From: a virus
Taxonomy: Duplodnaviria; Caudoviricetes
Reading direction: 5' to 3' (one strand)
Virus record (IMG/VR): IMGVR_UViG_3300025706_000001
Span: 64,868 to 128,867 of that record
DNA: 64,000 nucleotides
Shown: piece by piece, positions 806 through 34,411 of the stretch
Layout of the letters: every line of letters begins with the position of its first letter
Position numbering within the stretch: the stretch's first letter is position 1
Program-made: the position numbers and the translations under genes
The notes under the pieces: model-generated
Database searches by the model: none
Told to the model about the DNA's origin: nothing
Seen by the model: only the letters and a program-made list of their open reading frames with translations

Positions 806-1705
806 ATGGCTAAACGCAATTCTAAATCGCCTTACGTGCCTGCACAAGACTTGTTCGACGGCGCAAGGCTCGGCAGGTTGTTGCTGATCAAAAAAGACGT
901 GGATGCGGCAGAAGACAGTTGGATCTGCCAGTGTGACTGCGGAACAACCAAGATCATCACGTCCTACCGGCTCATGCGCGGCGAAAAAAGTTGTGGCTGT
1001 ATTAGTGGTCACGGCATGTCCCGCGATCCAATTTACAGCTGCTGGTCTGGAATCACGTATCGCGGCAAAGGCAAGTCGAAAGAGCCGTGCTATGCCAATG
1101 GTGACATCCATGTTTGCAAGCGATGGATGGAGTCGTTCGAGGCGTTTTACGAAGACATGGGCGACAAACCGAGCCCAAAGCATTCGATCGACCGAATTGT
1201 AAACGCGAAGGGGTACACCTGCGGAAAATGTGAGGAATGTCTTTCTCGCGGCGACACCGCGAATTGCCGGTGGGCCACCAAGCAGGAACAGTCCATCAAT
1301 CGCTCCGTGACTCGCTTCATCACGCACGGCGGCGAAACATGCACGCTTACTGAATGGGCTCGCAGGGCAGGCATTTCGGTAACGACACTCGCTGGCAGGC
1401 TGGATCGCGGCTGGACCGTGCAAGACGCGATTACGAAGCCGTCCAATCATGCGGGTCAATGTCGGCGAACTGGACTTCACTTGATTACCCATGACGGACA
1501 AACTCATTCGATAACAGAATGGGCAAAGATCCTTGGAATTAGTTCTGCTGCAATTTGCTCTCGGCTAAGTCTTGGCTGGTCTGAATCAAAGGCGGTCTCC
1601 ACGCCCAGCAGAAGACCTAAAGTGAAAGTGTCGGCGAAAACGACTTCGCCAGAGCATAGTCCTCCAGTTGTTGCTGACTCCACTTCCCCGTCCGAAACCA
1701 CGTAA
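806..1705 (+). CDS. Free-standing HNH homing endonuclease-like protein, antisense to its neighbours
   Basis: WICQCDCG, KSCGC, VCKRW..F..FYEDMGDKP, HSIDRI, NCRWAT..EQ..NR motifs; two C-terminal TxxEWA repeats; GGAGG before ATG 806. Confidence 0.85.
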   Translation: MAKRNSKSPYVPAQDLFDGARLGRLLLIKKDVDAAEDSWICQCDCGTTKIITSYRLMRGEKSCGCISGHGMSRDPIYSCWSGITYRGKGKSKEPCYANGDIHVCKRWMESFEAFYEDMGDKPSPKHSIDRIVNAKGYTCGKCEECLSRGDTANCRWATKQEQSINRSVTRFITHGGETCTLTEWARRAGISVTTLAGRLDRGWTVQDAITKPSNHAGQCRRTGLHLITHDGQTHSITEWAKILGISSAAICSRLSLGWSESKAVSTPSRRPKVKVSAKTTSPEHSPPVVADSTSPSETT

Positions 1706-23776: not shown

Positions 23777-24153
23777 TGCTCTGACTCATCCTGTATCCGC
23801 TGAAGTTCTTTCCGTCGCCTTCGCCCGATCTCCGAGATTAGACGGAATTCCTCTTTGGTCAACAAGCCGTATTTGTGTGTGGCTACCAGTTCTTTGCCGG
23901 TGGCCGACAAATCTTCCTGAGTGTGGCATTTATCCTGGACGTACTTGATGATCCCTCTGGCTAACGGCCCAAGGCAGGCGTGTTCCTTGAAGATCCGCAA
24001 GCACTTTCCACAGGTGTTCCCAAAGGGATCGTCTAGCAGTGTAAACACTCTGCCATCTGGCATCTTCTCACCGCACACGCTCTCTGTGTCGGTTTCGTAG
24101 TAATGCCAAAGGCGTCCATCAACGGAAACCCAGATCGGCTCACTTAGGTTCAT
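23773..24153 (-). CDS. Hypothetical zinc-binding protein
   Basis: WH...VCG...CGKC. Confidence 0.45.
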   Translation of the reverse strand: MNLSEPIWVSVDGRLWHYYETDTESVCGEKMPDGRVFTLLDDPFGNTCGKCLRIFKEHACLGPLARGIIKYVQDKCHTQEDLSATGKELVATHKYGLLTKEEFRLISEIGRRRRKELQRIQDESEQ

Positions 24154-26599
24154 TCTGGACTTTTGGTGCAAAGTTGGGGTACACTTCTGCGACAGGCTTT
24201 TTCCAGTCGCCGAATTTGGGAACTCGTTGCAAGCCCCTGGTATTCCACGGGGGAGATCCGATGGCGCGGGAGTACATCCGCGCCGCAGCGCCACAGGTGC
24301 GTCCCTTGCGGGCCATGACGGCGAGGCACTGGTTCCAGTATTTCTGCTTCTGCTCGAAGCTGTTGACGACGGGCTTCTTCTTTTCCCGCTTGATTTCTTT
24401 CAGTAGGCCGCGTTCTACGGCGATGGCTCGGCCTTGACGCGATTGTCGTGAGCCACAGTTCGGACAGACGGGCATTCCAGAGTAGGCACATCCGCAGGTC
24501 GTGCAGATGATCGGTTCCTTGGTTCCACCTTCCTTGCGTTTCTTCTGGTATTCCTGGTCGATGGACCGGGATTTCTCCAGCGGCCACTCGATGTCTTCGT
24601 CGGGGAAGCCGTGGGCGACGACGCCGCCCGCATGATCCAAAATTATACAGTTGTGGACGAGGCAATCGTTTGCGGTGAACCTCTGTAAAGGCCCTGCATT
24701 GAGAATGTCCCATACTTCCCTTTTGGCTTGCAAGACGGACGGTTCCAGCGAGCAATTATTTCTTCGTCTGTCATCTGCAAGAGAATCAAGTGTTGAAGAG
24801 TTGCGTCTGCGTACCGAATCTCTGGGTAATTTGCTCGGAAGCTGACAAGTCGTTCCCGAGATCCGCGATTTCTCCTCGTATTGTTCTGCTGCTGAACATT
24901 GTTGGCCCACCGCAAGTTTCCCGGTTCGTAATGCCCCATGTTGTCGATTCTGTCGATCGTCCACTCTCTCCCATGAATTCCAAGATTGTCCGCAATCCAT
25001 TGAGCGGCTGCGTTTGGACTTGAGAACCTGAACTCGACTCCACGGGCACCGTACCGATAGTACGCATAAGACTCCACGTTTTGGCACCTGTCCTGCTGCG
25101 ACTGACATCGTTGATACAGCCATTTCGGCACTTTCACAGGCACTCGTGGCGTACACTTCGGACACGCCCTTGTATTGGGTCGCCTGCGCATATTGTGGTA
25201 TCGACTCATGTAGACAGTTCCGCACTCCGCACACTTGACTTCGACAAGCAGGCTCCAGGATGTGCCCTGTGTTTTGCGTGATACGATGGTCAGTGACCCA
25301 AACTGGGCACCCACCAGATCCGCTCTTAACAATCCGCAGTCGTCCACTAGCCGCTTCGGAGATACTTTTCCATCCTTCATTGGTCATTACCCTGTGGTCT
25401 GGAGTAGCAGTAAGCCCGTCGTATGACATCACAGACTGCACGCCTTTACAAACAGCGCCGCCGTGACTAACAAAGCGTACACCATCCCACACCTTGTGGT
25501 CAAGAGTAATATCTTGTATTTCGACCAGTCCTAATTGAGTAAGGATAAGTGACCCTCTGGCTATGCAATCCTGCTTTCCTTCAAATGGTCGTAATGCACG
25601 TCCGCACCTTTGTCGATACATGACCAGGGAGCGGCACGGGGATGCAATGACAACGCAAGAAACTTCTGGAACGTCGATTCCGTATGAGCATATATTGACA
25701 TTGCACAGCACTTGAATCGCCCCTGATTTCAGGTCATCAAATGCTTGGGCGCGTTCATCGGAAGGCGTGGTGTCATCAACATGTGCCGCTCGAATTCCTG
25801 CTTTGAGAAATTCGTCTCGCAGGTGAGTGGCATGAGATTGGGTTGCCCCAAACACAAACGTTTTGCGGTCGCTGGCAAGGCGAATCCAGTTTTCAACGAT
25901 GTCGCCAACGAGCTTAGGCTTGTCCACTCGCTTGGCAGCTTCGGACTCCCATTCAATTGAGCGAACGCCTTTCATGTCCGGCGCGTGACCCAGGAACACC
26001 CTGGCCGGCACTAGGAATCCAAGTTCTCGCAATTCCTCGTAGCCTGCGGCAGTCACGATGCTTTCCCAGAAGTCGCCCAGTCCCTTGCCGTCTGCGCGTC
26101 CTGGAGTCGCAGACAGGCCGAGTGTGACCATGCCTGGATTCTGCTTCTCGATTTCCAACATTAAGGCCATGAAGCGAGGGGCGGCTGACAGGTGGCATTC
26201 ATCGACCGCAAGTACGTTTGTCTTGGGGATCGGTATTTTGCTGCGGCGCACAGCACGATGATGCAACGTATCCTTGGACACCACCAAACATTCGCTGCCG
26301 GCCATCTGTTCACCCAGTCCAGCAGCAATGAACGAATACTTGATATCGCAGTCGATCAAGTGCTCGGCTGTCTGACGAAGAAGTTCTCGTCGCGGGGCCA
26401 TGAACATCGACAGCGAGCCGCGATTAGCAGAGAGCTTTATGATACCGCACGTTAGGGTGGTTTTTCCCGATCCCGTCGGCGAGTTGATGATGATCCGCCT
26501 GCGCCCCTTCCTGATCTCGTCTCTGACCTTCTCGATCAGGTTGCACTGGTACGGGCGAAGACGTTTACTGCCGAGGTCGAGTTCAGAAAGATCGGTCAT
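24140..26599 (-). CDS. SF2 DEAD/DEAH-box helicase (RadD/YejH-like) with an intein
   Basis: LRPYQ, SPTGSGKT, VDECH, LSATP, GIDVP, YRQRCGRALR, ILDHAG, C-terminal CxxC..CxxC. Confidence 0.93.
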   Translation of the reverse strand: MTDLSELDLGSKRLRPYQCNLIEKVRDEIRKGRRRIIINSPTGSGKTTLTCGIIKLSANRGSLSMFMAPRRELLRQTAEHLIDCDIKYSFIAAGLGEQMAGSECLVVSKDTLHHRAVRRSKIPIPKTNVLAVDECHLSAAPRFMALMLEIEKQNPGMVTLGLSATPGRADGKGLGDFWESIVTAAGYEELRELGFLVPARVFLGHAPDMKGVRSIEWESEAAKRVDKPKLVGDIVENWIRLASDRKTFVFGATQSHATHLRDEFLKAGIRAAHVDDTTPSDERAQAFDDLKSGAIQVLCNVNICSYGIDVPEVSCVVIASPCRSLVMYRQRCGRALRPFEGKQDCIARGSLILTQLGLVEIQDITLDHKVWDGVRFVSHGGAVCKGVQSVMSYDGLTATPDHRVMTNEGWKSISEAASGRLRIVKSGSGGCPVWVTDHRITQNTGHILEPACRSQVCGVRNCLHESIPQYAQATQYKGVSEVYATSACESAEMAVSTMSVAAGQVPKRGVLCVLSVRCPWSRVQVLKSKRSRSMDCGQSWNSWERVDDRQNRQHGALRTGKLAVGQQCSAAEQYEEKSRISGTTCQLPSKLPRDSVRRRNSSTLDSLADDRRRNNCSLEPSVLQAKREVWDILNAGPLQRFTANDCLVHNCIILDHAGGVVAHGFPDEDIEWPLEKSRSIDQEYQKKRKEGGTKEPIICTTCGCAYSGMPVCPNCGSRQSRQGRAIAVERGLLKEIKREKKKPVVNSFEQKQKYWNQCLAVMARKGRTCGAAARMYSRAIGSPPWNTRGLQRVPKFGDWKKPVAEVYPNFAPKVQNEPK
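24643..25380 (-). CDS. HNH endonuclease nested in an alternative frame within the intein
   Basis: GAQFGSLT, CAECG, CPKC, RC.N....Y.RYGARGV, TIDRIDNMGHYEPGNLRWA...Q.NN.R. Confidence 0.85.
   Translation of the reverse strand: MKDGKVSPKRLVDDCGLLRADLVGAQFGSLTIVSRKTQGTSWSLLVEVKCAECGTVYMSRYHNMRRRPNTRACPKCTPRVPVKVPKWLYQRCQSQQDRCQNVESYAYYRYGARGVEFRFSSPNAAAQWIADNLGIHGREWTIDRIDNMGHYEPGNLRWANNVQQQNNTRRNRGSRERLVSFRANYPEIRYADATLQHLILLQMTDEEIIARWNRPSCKPKGKYGTFSMQGLYRGSPQTIASSTTV
24650..25567 (-). other. Intein (306 aa) in the helicase
   Basis: GKQD|CIARGSLI (block A), LTATPDHRV (block B), VWDI...FTAN..LVHN|C (blocks F/G); removal restores FEGKQD-CIILDHAG. Confidence 0.92.
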
Positions 26600-26605
26600 T
26601 AGTTT

Positions 26606-26893
26606 CTACATCGTTATAGAGTTAGAGAACTGAAACCGTTCCGCTTCACGCGGTAACTTGTTCCACAGTTCGATGGTCTTTGACTTGTCCGATTCGCACC
26701 ACGTTGCTACGAATCCGCAGTTCTGGCAGTCGATGAAACAGACTCCAAACATCGACATCAAACGCGGCGAGTACGATTCCCACGGGCCTGTTCGTCCTCC
26801 CATTCTGCGAACGTGTTCGTCGTAGGCATCGCGGTCGAAACCACACGACGGGCATGGCTTCAACTGAGTGTATCCAGTGGCATCAGTTGACAT
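26606..26893 (-). CDS. Lar-like restriction alleviation zinc-ribbon protein
   Basis: LKPCPSCG...CQNCG...IELWN. Confidence 0.6.
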   Translation of the reverse strand: MSTDATGYTQLKPCPSCGFDRDAYDEHVRRMGGRTGPWESYSPRLMSMFGVCFIDCQNCGFVATWCESDKSKTIELWNKLPREAERFQFSNSITM

Positions 26894-27258
26894 TTAATTT
26901 TGCCTCGGCTTTCTGCTTTCAACGTAGTCACACCAGTTGAGCATGGCTTCAACGACGCTCGGTTTGTCGTGCCGAAACACCTGTCCGTCGGGAAGGGTCA
27001 CGACCCATTTGCGGGCTTCTTTGTCCCAAGCGAAGCGATTATCCATCATCATCCTCACTCCACCAATCATAGGCATCCCATTCAGGCTCGTCGTCTTCGC
27101 CAATTTCGTCGCACATTCCACCAGCCAGCACGCCATCACAAGGGCCGTTGGCACACCGGCAGTGTTTCGATACTTGCGCGACAAACTCTTGGTACTCAGA
27201 GCTGTTCATGAATTCTTCGGGTTCCGTAGTGCCAGATGGGTTGTTGTCGATAAGCTCG

Positions 27259-32331: not shown

Positions 32332-33072
32332 TCACGATCTAGCCTCCTCGTCTTTGGCTACCGGCACACCATCGACGCTTTCGACTTCTCCGCCTTCGAT
32401 TACGATGTTGCACTCTGCGACTTTGCCAATCCTTGTAGAAACCGCTTTCTCTGGAGTCCATTCATGGTGAATTCGGTAGTATGCAGTTGCAGCAGCTACA
32501 ATACGAAGTCGCCTACACCATTCAGCAACGCTCAATGTTAAACCACTGATTGTCGCATGGATTACGTTTCTCCTGTTTGACGACTGTTCGCAAAGCGTTG
32601 CCCATCGGCAGTTTCCCGGTTCGTAGTGGCCGTTGTTGTCTGGATGTCGGTCGATTGAGTGCTTGTCAGACGGGCGGCGACCCATGTCGTTCAAGAATGC
32701 GATGTAGCTACTGCGCCATTTCTGGCAAACGCGAATCCCGCGTCCGCCGTAGTATTTGTAGTGCGAGTTTGTCTCATCCTCACACCGCTGAATCATTGCC
32801 CGCCAAATCGCGTACTCTGGTGCCTTTCCGTTTGAGTCTCCATGCTTGCGGTGGGCTATGCCGCACTTTTCCCTAAACTTACATCCGCACTGGCCTTTTC
32901 GCCTTGCGTGAGCCGCGTCGCATTCTGTCGTTCCACCACAGTCGCACTGGAACAGCCATATCCATTCATTTTTACTGCCTTGTCGAACAGGACCAATGGC
33001 AACTAGATCACCGAACCGCTTTCCAGCGATGTTGATGGACTTGCCTTTAAGGACAGTTAGCGGAAGTGTCAT
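32332..33072 (-). CDS. Free-standing HNH endonuclease
   Basis: GKRFGDL, W.FQCDCG, AMIQRC, YGGRGIRVC..W, SIDR..DNNGHYEPGNCRWAT. Confidence 0.88.
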   Translation of the reverse strand: MTLPLTVLKGKSINIAGKRFGDLVAIGPVRQGSKNEWIWLFQCDCGGTTECDAAHARRKGQCGCKFREKCGIAHRKHGDSNGKAPEYAIWRAMIQRCEDETNSHYKYYGGRGIRVCQKWRSSYIAFLNDMGRRPSDKHSIDRHPDNNGHYEPGNCRWATLCEQSSNRRNVIHATISGLTLSVAEWCRRLRIVAAATAYYRIHHEWTPEKAVSTRIGKVAECNIVIEGGEVESVDGVPVAKDEEARS

Positions 33073-33073
33073 G

Positions 33074-34411
33074 TTAGGTCGTCTTCGTGTCGGCGTCAGA
33101 TCGTTCGACGAGGCCATTTTCGATGATGATATTGCATTCTGCGCCCTTGCCAACTCTTTCAAGGAAAAGTTGAATTCCCTGTTCAGCGGCCAAGTTTGCA
33201 AACTCAATCATCCCGTCTTCGTCGAGAAGAGATGAGTCCTTTAGGAAGGCGAAGCGAAGAGTCGGCGACATGGCCACGCAGATACCCATTGCGACCTTAC
33301 GCTGCTCATAGGCGCTCGCCTGCGCAAACGGCAAGCCGTTGTACGTGACACCTGTTTCGTCGTATCCCAGCCCATCGACAGGCCACTTTGCGGCTTCGCG
33401 CATGGCCTGCTTCTCGGCTTCGATGACCTTCAGGCGTTCCGAGGCTGACCTCCACTCGGCCTGCTTGGCGACGACGGCTGCTGCGATCTCGGCGTGCTTG
33501 GCGTTGTCGCGGACCTTGCGGTTGATTTGTTCGGCGCTGGCCATCTGGGCTTCGATGTCGGAGGTGTCCTGGTCCTTCAGGGCGTTGACGATCGCGGTTT
33601 GCGCGGTCGCCTGTCGCAGGCACTCGTTGTAGGCTGCGTCTAGGGAATTGCGATCCGACTCGGCTTTGGCGAGCTGTTGCTTCAGGGCGGCAATTTCCTC
33701 GTCCTTCCGCTCGACGGCTTGGCCGGCTGCTTTGGCCTTGGCCTCAACCCGAACCAATTCTTGTCTCTCGGCAGCGTTCTCTTGGTTTACCTTGTGAATG
33801 GCCTTCAGGACGCCGGCCAGCTCGGTAATGCTGATTTCCTCGGCAGGCGCGTCGTCGTGCTTTTTGCACCCGTCCAATTGTCCTTTGAGCGACTTGCCTT
33901 CCCGCGTCAGCGCCGTCCGCTCGTCGTAGATCCGTTTGTACTCGGCGTCCAGCTTCGAGAAGTCCAGCCCGACGAGTTCGCGCAGTACGTCAGCCTGCTT
34001 CTTCGCGTCCATTCTCAGGAACGCTTCGGGGTCAAACCCTAGGATTCCGCACACGTCAGCCAAAAGAGTCTGTGGTGATGGCGCAGCGTACCCGTCCTTG
34101 GTGATGATTTCCAGCCTGGAGTCGATGTCTCCATTGGCTTTGCGGAAGAATTCCCGTGTCACGATGATTGCCGGAATGAGCTTTGACGGCTCGCCATCCA
34201 GCTCGACCGTGACCTTTGCCGTGTCCTGCCCAGTACGAATAGGCTTCTCGGGACAGAGCTTCTTGCCGCCAAGTGCGGCCGCGATGCTGTCGAGAAGGCT
34301 CGACTTTCCCTGGCGATTTCGTCCTCCAATGACGGTTGTCGTCTTGTTTGGCCTCACTTCTACCAACTGAAGCCCCTTGAAGTTTTCCGCTCGAACGCTC
34401 ACGACTTGCAT
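33074..34411 (-). CDS. SbcC/Rad50-like coiled-coil ATPase
   Basis: ENFKG, Walker A GRNRQGKSS, long coiled coil, signature-like QASAYEQ, DSSLLD. Confidence 0.85.
   Translation of the reverse strand: MQVVSVRAENFKGLQLVEVRPNKTTTVIGGRNRQGKSSLLDSIAAALGGKKLCPEKPIRTGQDTAKVTVELDGEPSKLIPAIIVTREFFRKANGDIDSRLEIITKDGYAAPSPQTLLADVCGILGFDPEAFLRMDAKKQADVLRELVGLDFSKLDAEYKRIYDERTALTREGKSLKGQLDGCKKHDDAPAEEISITELAGVLKAIHKVNQENAAERQELVRVEAKAKAAGQAVERKDEEIAALKQQLAKAESDRNSLDAAYNECLRQATAQTAIVNALKDQDTSDIEAQMASAEQINRKVRDNAKHAEIAAAVVAKQAEWRSASERLKVIEAEKQAMREAAKWPVDGLGYDETGVTYNGLPFAQASAYEQRKVAMGICVAMSPTLRFAFLKDSSLLDEDGMIEFANLAAEQGIQLFLERVGKGAECNIIIENGLVERSDADTKTT

Follow-up and report, generated by a model that had tools for sequence, protein, structure and literature searches.

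An HNH-like nuclease gene overlapping, in frame +1, a class-1 intein of a phage SF2 helicase, and the conservation of this layout in related inteins

We analyzed a 64,000-nucleotide stretch of phage DNA (hereafter the window), which forms the latter half of a viral record that is complete at 128,867 bp and has direct terminal repeats (IMG/VR IMGVR_UViG_3300025706_000001), and found that its SF2 helicase gene carries an intein whose middle is overlapped, on the same strand and in the +1 frame, by a second gene belonging to families annotated as HNH endonucleases. We consider it quite probable that the class-1 intein and the overlapping nuclease gene together constitute a two-part mobile element. 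The first part would be a Hint domain, for which the opening ~95 and closing ~26 codons of the insert code in the frame of the helicase; the second would be a complete ‘HNH endonuclease’-family gene lying in the +1 frame over the intein middle and blocks F and G. During translation of the helicase frame, the middle would be read as a stop-free, disordered linker, which protein splicing would remove with the intein, restoring ...GKQD-CIILDH.... Internal initiation at ATG 25380 on the same mRNA would most likely yield the nuclease as a separate product; the nuclease would cleave helicase alleles that lack the intein in co-infecting relatives, and repair would copy in the whole element (homing). 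This proposal is built on the two open reading frames (ORFs), their conservation in relatives, selection specific to each frame, the Hint fold, a sequence verified in independent runs and the existence of an intein-less allele.

The helicase precursor is encoded by an 819-codon ORF on the minus strand (24140-26599), which is open throughout and matches Pfam ResIII (E 6.5e-20) and Helicase_C (E 1.9e-18). The 306-amino-acid intein (24650-25567, minus strand) is inserted in frame past helicase motif VI, and the intein-less homolog P0005/L086 is without exactly that segment. By alignment to L086, the 344-amino-acid N-extein (25568-26599, minus strand) ends ...QRCGRALRPFEGKQD directly past motif VI, and Cys1 of the intein follows ...GKQD at 25567-25565. 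The insert ends ...VWDILNAGPLQRFTANDCLVHN, with the His-Asn pair at 24655-24650. Cys+1 is the TGT at 24649-24647, giving the downstream junction ...LVHN/CIILDH, and from sequence and alignments the C-extein (24140-24649, minus strand; 169 amino acids plus stop) begins CIILDHAGG. The initial annotation had described a 306-amino-acid intein with intact splicing blocks and a 245-amino-acid ORF in another frame of the same strand, and all of its coordinates and lengths were correct. Pfam searches detected no intein or HNH domain in either the helicase precursor or the nuclease protein, and a blastn search with the helicase gene against 50,697 phage records gave no match.

The splicing part of the insert was characterized by alignment and by structure prediction. 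Cys1 was invariant among 42 aligned relatives, as were T55, D57 and H58 of block B (T55-P-D-H58) and the terminal N306, and the ...LVHN/C end has both the His-Asn pair and Cys+1. AlphaFold2 modelled residues 1-95 and 281-306 of the intein frame with a predicted local distance difference test score (pLDDT) of 96-98, while residues 100-280 scored ~45 and were predicted to be disordered. The ordered parts were compared with solved structures using VIA-align, and the closest match was the Mtu RecA intein (2imz; Z 15.4, root-mean-square deviation 2.7, 119 residues aligned), followed by NrdJ-1 and gp41-1 (Z 15.2 each) and NpuDnaB (Z 15.1); matches to solved splicing domains ranged from Z 15.4 to 12, and the top 30 were all inteins or Hint domains. 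At the sequence level, a phmmer search of PDB sequences returned only a weak block B alignment to the Mtu RecA intein (E 0.2), and the Pfam intein models did not match the window intein. Judged by its sequence, its model and the homologous inteins at the same site, the insert is a real class-1 intein with intact splicing blocks and is predicted to splice. Its N-terminal Hint part (25283-25567, minus strand; residues 1-95) holds blocks A and B in the helicase frame, and its C-terminal Hint part (24650-24727, minus strand; residues 281-306, pLDDT 96) holds blocks F and G and ends ...EVWDILNAGPLQRFTANDCLVHN. Between them lies a linker (24728-25282, minus strand; residues 96-280), a stop-free and apparently unstructured passenger peptide, in which Pfam found no domain, in agreement with the earlier description of a middle without a recognisable domain.

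The overlapping nuclease ORF (24643-25380, minus strand; 245 amino acids) runs from ATG 25380 to the TAA at 24645-24643, in frame +1 relative to the intein. Its stop lies 7 nt beyond the end of the intein and overlaps the Cys+1, Ile and Ile codons of the C-extein. A TAA TGA stop pair in the nuclease frame (25384-25389, minus strand), read directly from the sequence, stands immediately upstream of the ATG and excludes read-in in that frame from further upstream. Both the intein and the nuclease frames are open across 731-738 nt, close to the ~740 nt first reported, and the third frame has 9 stops in the same stretch. When the codons of the nuclease ORF were shuffled synonymously, a mean of 9.8 stops appeared in the intein frame and none of 1000 shuffles was stop-free, showing that the double opening is beyond chance.

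To examine relatives, IMG/VR was scanned with three inteins (the window, Javan113 and AB1 types), yielding 80 loci, 69 of them with complete matches to the N-terminal Hint part, the nuclease and the C-terminal Hint part. In all 69 complete loci the nuclease was in frame +1 relative to both Hint parts and the intein frame contained no stops; the third frame contained 3-25. The layout was also found in isolate phages: tblastn with the +1 protein gave matches inside genes annotated ‘DNA polymerase I’ in Streptococcus phage Javan113 and Gardnerella phage vB_Gva_AB1, whose polymerases carry a homologous 309-amino-acid intein with the nuclease match likewise in frame +1. A homologous intein at the same site was present in ~50 database helicases of ~800 amino acids, including entries from Alteromonadaceae, Anaerolineales and Pseudomonas aeruginosa.

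Selection on the two frames was assessed from codon usage and from codon-position variability, using 44 non-redundant loci for the synonymous-codon and start-signal counts. With the nuclease at +1, a host-frame stop arises only where a nuclease codon ending in T precedes a codon that starts with AA, AG or GA. Codons ending in T were never used before such starts (0/2928), compared to 22% elsewhere (1836/8263). Synonymous shuffling within the ORFs of the 44 loci introduced a mean of 10.2 host-frame stops, and almost never zero. The avoidance of T-ending codons together with the shuffling result indicates that selection holds the helicase frame open, and that the nuclease sequence pays no price for it. 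The +1 overlap is cheap because exchanging T for a synonymous C avoids the host-frame stop without altering the nuclease.

Frame-specific selection was tested through codon-position variability in nuclease-guided codon alignments. From intein codon 1 to ~70, the most variable position was the wobble position of the intein frame. Over codons ~76-285 it was the nuclease-frame wobble, with difference rates of ~0.6 against 0.2-0.3 at the intein wobble, which was the least variable position in the linker; from codon 286 to codon 306, across blocks F and G, variability was again highest at the intein-frame wobble. The switch was seen independently in the helicase group (9 sequences) and in the PolA group (16 sequences), and it places the nuclease frame under purifying selection over ~24712-25341. 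The nuclease ORF is thus selected as a protein, and the layout is kept by selection in many phages; the initial annotation, which had itself called for a frame-specific test, is borne out in its proposal of an overprinted nuclease gene.

The +1 protein matched two families, PHROG 374 (E 1e-20) and PHROG 3377 (E 2e-18), both annotated ‘HNH endonuclease’. The initial annotation had placed it in the same family as two free-standing genes of the window, and this holds more firmly for one than for the other. The free-standing gene at 32332-33207 (minus strand; PHROG 374, E 4e-58), recovered in a search of the phage's own genome, encodes a homolog with 29% identity over 161 amino acids (BLASTP E 2e-11). 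The gene at 806-1705 (plus strand; PHROG 3377, E 1e-45; PHROG 374, E 4e-40) is a distant HNH-family relative whose pairwise match to the +1 protein was not significant (BLASTP E 0.13), so that the tie runs only through the two PHROG profiles. A third homolog was seen outside the window, in the half of this phage genome that precedes it (G000:C1:20937-21170, minus strand), with 39% identity over residues 95-172 inside a 272-amino-acid open frame.

Based on the 42-sequence alignment, AlphaFold2 modelled the nuclease frame with a mean pLDDT of 87.5, confidently over residues 10-220, as a Zn-ribbon, an HNH-like core and a helical C-terminal module; the last ~25 residues, which run across blocks F and G, were disordered. 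In the family alignment C50 is invariant and C53, C73 and C76 are nearly so, and the four would make a CxxC...CxxC zinc ribbon. The conserved core reads ...YGxRG...(I)DRIDNxGxYxxGNLR...N. A profile of the family aligned in register, albeit weakly (E 0.52), with the catalytic motif of I-HmuI, with the Asp and two Asn residues matched: N155 and N167 are invariant, and D143 is present in 90% or more of the 42 members. In the model, strands 141-144 and 156-159 are followed by a helix at 161-166.

The expression signals of the nuclease were compared among the relatives. The start lies at a conserved offset from Cys1, either +145 or +187 nt, and at +187 in the window. A Shine-Dalgarno match of at least 5 nt, located 7-8 nt before the start, was found in 26 of the 44 non-redundant loci, compared to 6.6% of control ATGs. 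The motif in relatives, GAGGT and longer, comes from the Glu-Val codons (GAG GTN) of the Hint part. From these signals it is most likely that the nuclease is made by internal initiation on the helicase mRNA, for the window at ATG 25380 by analogy with its relatives. The same helicase intein and +1 nuclease ORF were observed in a prophage-like region of a P. aeruginosa assembly (GCA_029520495.1; L089:3001-5403), whose neighborhood contains an S24 repressor, Cro, the helicase and a primase; the nuclease start there is a GTG at offset +187, with GAGGTG upstream.

Several results weigh against the two-part element as proposed. The window has Arg-Val (AGG GTA) at the place of the Glu-Val codons, leaving only the weaker AGGGT upstream of the ATG (25389-25393, minus strand). 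A promoter and terminator scan of 24000-27000 found none, so that a single mRNA probably serves for both products, whose expression the initial annotation had suggested might be uncoupled. Folding of the RNA around the start of the nuclease scored no better than shuffled sequence (z-score 0.35). Contigs identical to the window came from two RNA libraries (X4 and X7), and the presence of the sequence in them does not prove transcription. Splicing, internal initiation, cleavage, the target site and homing of the helicase intein are inferred, and the 245-amino-acid product is predicted. With regard to the protein, an invariant Arg (R144, 42/42 members) occupies the general-base His position of the weak I-HmuI alignment. 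This substitution may reflect a differing catalytic mechanism or a non-nuclease protein, and catalysis may accordingly be different or absent. The Pfam HNH models did not match the window +1 protein, and HNH_3 was hit by 3 of the 42 relatives (best E 0.0033), none reaching threshold. The best relevant VIA-align match of the nuclease model was PacI (Z 5.2), tied with unrelated chains, and a Foldseek search of the PDB gave nothing at E <= 0.001. ‘HNH-like nuclease’ is therefore the best label for the protein, resting on PHROG annotation and remote similarity. The IDR of the conserved core was also observed in the free-standing copies at 806 and 32332.

We weighed these points against explanations in which the overlap is spurious or the nuclease is made differently. 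The frame-specific codon-position variability ruled out a decaying relic as an account of the nuclease ORF. An assembly artefact, in which two compensating single-base indel errors pushed an ordinary in-frame HNH out of frame, is conceivable on paper, as one indel near 25320 and one near 24740 would place the HNH in frame between the Hint halves. However, contigs from an independent activated-sludge DNA run (X3) and from the two metatranscriptome libraries (X4 and X7) covered both would-be switch positions and were identical to the window with zero indels; the depth in the probable source run was ~300. The initial annotation had named compensating indels, and stops in the intein frame of homologs, as the findings that would speak against it: the independent runs contained no indels, and no stop was found in 69 of 69 loci. 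The +1 layout recurs in these loci, which come from many samples, and in isolate phage genomes, and an off-frame free of stops is not expected of an artefact. The independent runs, the 69 loci and the synonymous-shuffle result exclude the artefact, to which we assign a negligible probability. A second alternative is that the nuclease is produced within a larger polypeptide by programmed ribosomal frameshifting, without internal initiation, either by a +1 shift after the N-terminal Hint part and a -1 shift before block F, giving a canonical intein, or by a single +1 shift giving a fusion of N-extein, N-terminal Hint part and HNH. The homologous nuclease core starts at about residue 19 (...LVGAQFG), right past the end of the N-terminal Hint part, such that a shifted protein would resemble an ordinary HNH intein, and the weakness of the Shine-Dalgarno motif in the window also fits. 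Against this, the intein frame is stop-free over ~200 codons in every locus, which is sensible only if ribosomes read through, and most relatives have a start codon at the conserved offset with a strong GAGGT. No A/T-rich slippery run was seen by eye near the switch in the window, where, as in the relatives, no search for one was made; the unremarkable RNA fold around the start likewise gives frameshifting no help, and the disordered nuclease tail over blocks F and G is as expected of simple read-out to the next stop. Frameshifting is quite improbable on this evidence. Of the two routes to a separate nuclease offered in the initial annotation, internal initiation or frameshifting, the former is favoured by the start codons and Shine-Dalgarno motifs of relatives and would apply to the window, whose own motif is weaker, by analogy; the latter is disfavoured.

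Another explanation concerns the role of the +1 protein, which might be selected and expressed without being the homing nuclease of the intein: one possibility is a selfish gene along for the ride, sheltered by an intein that is spliced out and cutting at other sites, and another is a non-catalytic DNA-binding or helper protein. The invariant D-R where I-HmuI has D-H in the weak alignment is compatible with such a role, as are the free-standing paralogs in the same genome and a pair of polymerase loci described below (L074 and L075), in which the HNH module is present or absent in an otherwise near-identical intein and so moves without the Hint part. On the other side, the pairing of intein and nuclease persists across two host genes and several insertion sites, and loss of the nuclease has left scattered mini-inteins, as in a classical homing cycle. 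Hint and nuclease similarities also co-vary (Pearson r 0.74, 946 locus pairs), which is only weak support for inheritance as a unit since the loci share history and shared ancestry alone could produce much of the correlation. We regard a role other than homing as rather unlikely, and retain the two-part element of intein and homing nuclease as the preferred explanation.

The intein-less allele P0005/L086, carried by a closely related phage, is 93% identical to the window helicase in protein and 84% in DNA, and intein-less homologs are ~510 amino acids long. Its junction reads ...GKES/CIVLDH..., against ...GKQD and CIILDH... on either side of the intein in the window, and the corresponding intein-less junction sequence in L086, ...GGCAAGGAAAGT/TGTATAGTT..., would be the expected homing substrate. 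In the probable source sample (run X1, record 2), we observed a second contig that matches the window at 90-95% over only 78 nt of the C-extein (24536-24613), with divergent sequence to either side; it is probably a related allele of the helicase gene in the same community.

Host genes of the loci, assigned by Pfam and inspection of the flanks, were SF2 helicases, with the insertion past motif VI, and family-A DNA polymerases, with at least two insertion points in polymerase motif B (...GKV/CxLGLG... and ...GKxAELA/CGYGG...). In a midpoint-rooted tree of the Hint part, the helicase inteins formed one clade (support 91/76; core 99/95) among polymerase inteins; as the root is a midpoint, the direction of the jump between PolA and helicase is not established. 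The helicase sites and the nearest PolA sites have in common a GGCAAG (Gly-Lys) 3-6 nt before the insertion point, which is followed by TG(C/T) (for example window 25568-25591, L062, L072 and L056), and this shared sequence hints at a change of host gene through target-site similarity.

Mini-inteins occurred at several places in the tree beside full-length relatives. Two of them, of 187 and 157 amino acids (L058:2501-3061 and L080:1601-2071), keep N- and C-terminal remnants of the +1 nuclease and have lost its core, from which we conclude that they are deletion derivatives with the host frame preserved, not ancestors. A presence/absence polymorphism of the nuclease module alone was seen in a second, related PolA intein, where two loci (L074:3300-3900 and L075:3682-4212; IMG/VR 3300001765_000088 and _000198) differ by 531 nt and show 2 mismatches in the compared stretch. 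The 531-nt segment of L075 lies between copies of a 4-nt ACCG repeat and contains most of an HNH gene of the free-standing type in frame +1, with no stop in the intein frame. This polymorphism shows that Hint part and nuclease module need not be acquired or lost together. It is also the only direct support for the suggestion in the initial annotation that an HNH gene invaded a mini-intein out of frame, which it makes plausible; the mini-inteins found in this family are derived deletion products.

Papers of 2025-26 from the Gogarten laboratory report the general design with other nucleases. The endonuclease of an intein is usually in frame, as the initial annotation stated, but out-of-frame cases are already published. 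In actinobacteriophage inteins (Gosselin, Arsenault, Gogarten; bioRxiv 10.1101/2025.01.02.630785), LAGLIDADG or VSR-like genes lie antisense and an endonuclease VII-like gene lies on the same strand in ‘frame 3’, and HNH inteins are in frame; the authors proposed that free-standing endonucleases invaded the inteins and argued that annotation pipelines miss such inteins. Those inteins resemble the helicase intein in having the splicing domain in the host frame, an endonuclease ORF over the middle in another frame and an unstructured in-frame middle. Unlike them, the elements described here come from non-actinobacterial phages, sit at helicase motif VI or PolA motif B and involve an HNH-annotated family that is always at +1, and the nuclease of the helicase intein belongs to none of the published out-of-frame families (endonuclease VII-like, LAGLIDADG, VSR-like), matching PHROG 374 and 3377 instead. 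In the cyanobacterial DnaX intein, a LAGLIDADG endonuclease occupies a ‘+2 ORF’, and both Shine-Dalgarno motifs and frame-dependent ratios of nonsynonymous to synonymous change (dN/dS) are documented (Phillips, DeSimone, Gogarten; bioRxiv 10.64898/2026.09.14.751524); according to that paper, the out-of-frame endonuclease of the Synechocystis DnaX intein was first proposed by Gorbalenya in 1998. Like the helicase insert, the DnaX element is a genuine intein whose in-frame middle is disordered, and it has a well-folding overlapping endonuclease, frame-dependent selection, a putative Shine-Dalgarno motif, and mini-intein and intein-free alleles. It differs in its LAGLIDADG nuclease, its frame and its cellular host gene, in contrast to the HNH-like nuclease at +1 in phage genes.

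Other comparisons help to define the arrangement. The ShiLan-type ‘hidden HNH’ of phage methylases (Arsenault et al., Genes 2025, PMC11855218) is likewise an out-of-frame HNH in an open host ORF, starting a few bases into the insert and stopping at its end; a splicing domain is not detectable in that insert, which presumably remains part of the protein, whereas the nuclease of the helicase intein is flanked by an intact Hint part (Z 15 to solved inteins), such that the passenger peptide could be spliced out. Canonical in-frame HNH inteins, and the ‘fractured genes’ with split inteins and a free-standing endonuclease (Dassa et al. 2009, PMC2677866), also tie an intein to a non-LAGLIDADG endonuclease related to free-standing phage endonucleases. 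In the in-frame type the nuclease forms one domain of the intein protein, which it does not here, and unlike in the fractured type, the host frame is continuous over 819 codons; the arrangement is the continuous, overlapping intermediate. With the I-HmuI/HNH_3 nicking endonucleases the +1 protein shares a weak in-register motif (xxDxxDxxxxxxxxNLRxxTxxxNxxN), Zn-ribbon and helical DNA-binding modules and abundance in phages; it is set apart from them by the Arg in place of the general-base His, the absence of a Pfam HNH match reaching threshold and the weak fold similarity. None of the papers returned by full-text literature searches describes an HNH gene lying out of frame within a genuine intein. 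What is new here is the HNH-like nuclease, the constant +1 frame and the helicase and PolA hosts, and the advance for the field is incremental, since the layout was published in 2025-26 for other nuclease families. The window contributes a helicase host with an intein-less allele, a codon-level reason for the tolerance of +1, a ribosome-binding site made of Hint codons and the Arg-for-His motif.

We tentatively propose, as a possibility that we hold to be less probable than its contrary, that the +1 overprint is no frozen accident but a self-stabilising design that has evolved in a very large and so far unpublished family of inteins bearing HNH genes, with a nuclease that may be a new His-Me finger variant using Arg for the general-base His. 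The proposal is motivated by the host frame being kept open purely by the synonymous choice of C over T in the nuclease, and by the nuclease ribosome-binding site being built from conserved Hint Glu-Val codons. In addition, helicase-frame ribosome traffic may throttle nuclease synthesis, the nuclease cassette may move between inteins alone, as in L074/L075, and the composite element may have jumped between PolA motif B and helicase motif VI via the shared GGCAAG...TGC. Gene callers see one ORF at such loci, leaving the nuclease gene unannotated and the inteins taken for decaying or mini-inteins. The results suggest that encoding a homing nuclease in an overlapping frame and translating it separately is a common, stable solution rather than a curiosity. 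The family offers a natural system for the maintenance of two frames, for the association of inteins with nucleases (the ‘splicing first, nuclease later’ origin of inteins) and for changes of target gene, and culturable hosts are available for tests in the P. aeruginosa prophage-like locus, the Streptococcus Javan prophages and Gardnerella phage AB1.

A related N-terminal Hint part was also observed inside the DNA polymerase genes of 108 isolate phage genomes, including Salmonella Jerseyvirus, Hamiltonella APSE, Shigella EP23, Caulobacter RW and E. coli phages. Several of these genes are annotated ‘intein-containing DNA polymerase precursor’, and most of the matches span only the first 72-143 intein residues. 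Among close relatives of the window helicase, other inserts were present: Pfam domains of LAGLIDADG-type inteins occur in P0006 (87% identical, 855 amino acids), P0016 and P0060, an Intein_splicing domain occurs in P0010, and P0008 carries a different large insert a few residues downstream. The helicase family seems to be an intein hot spot.

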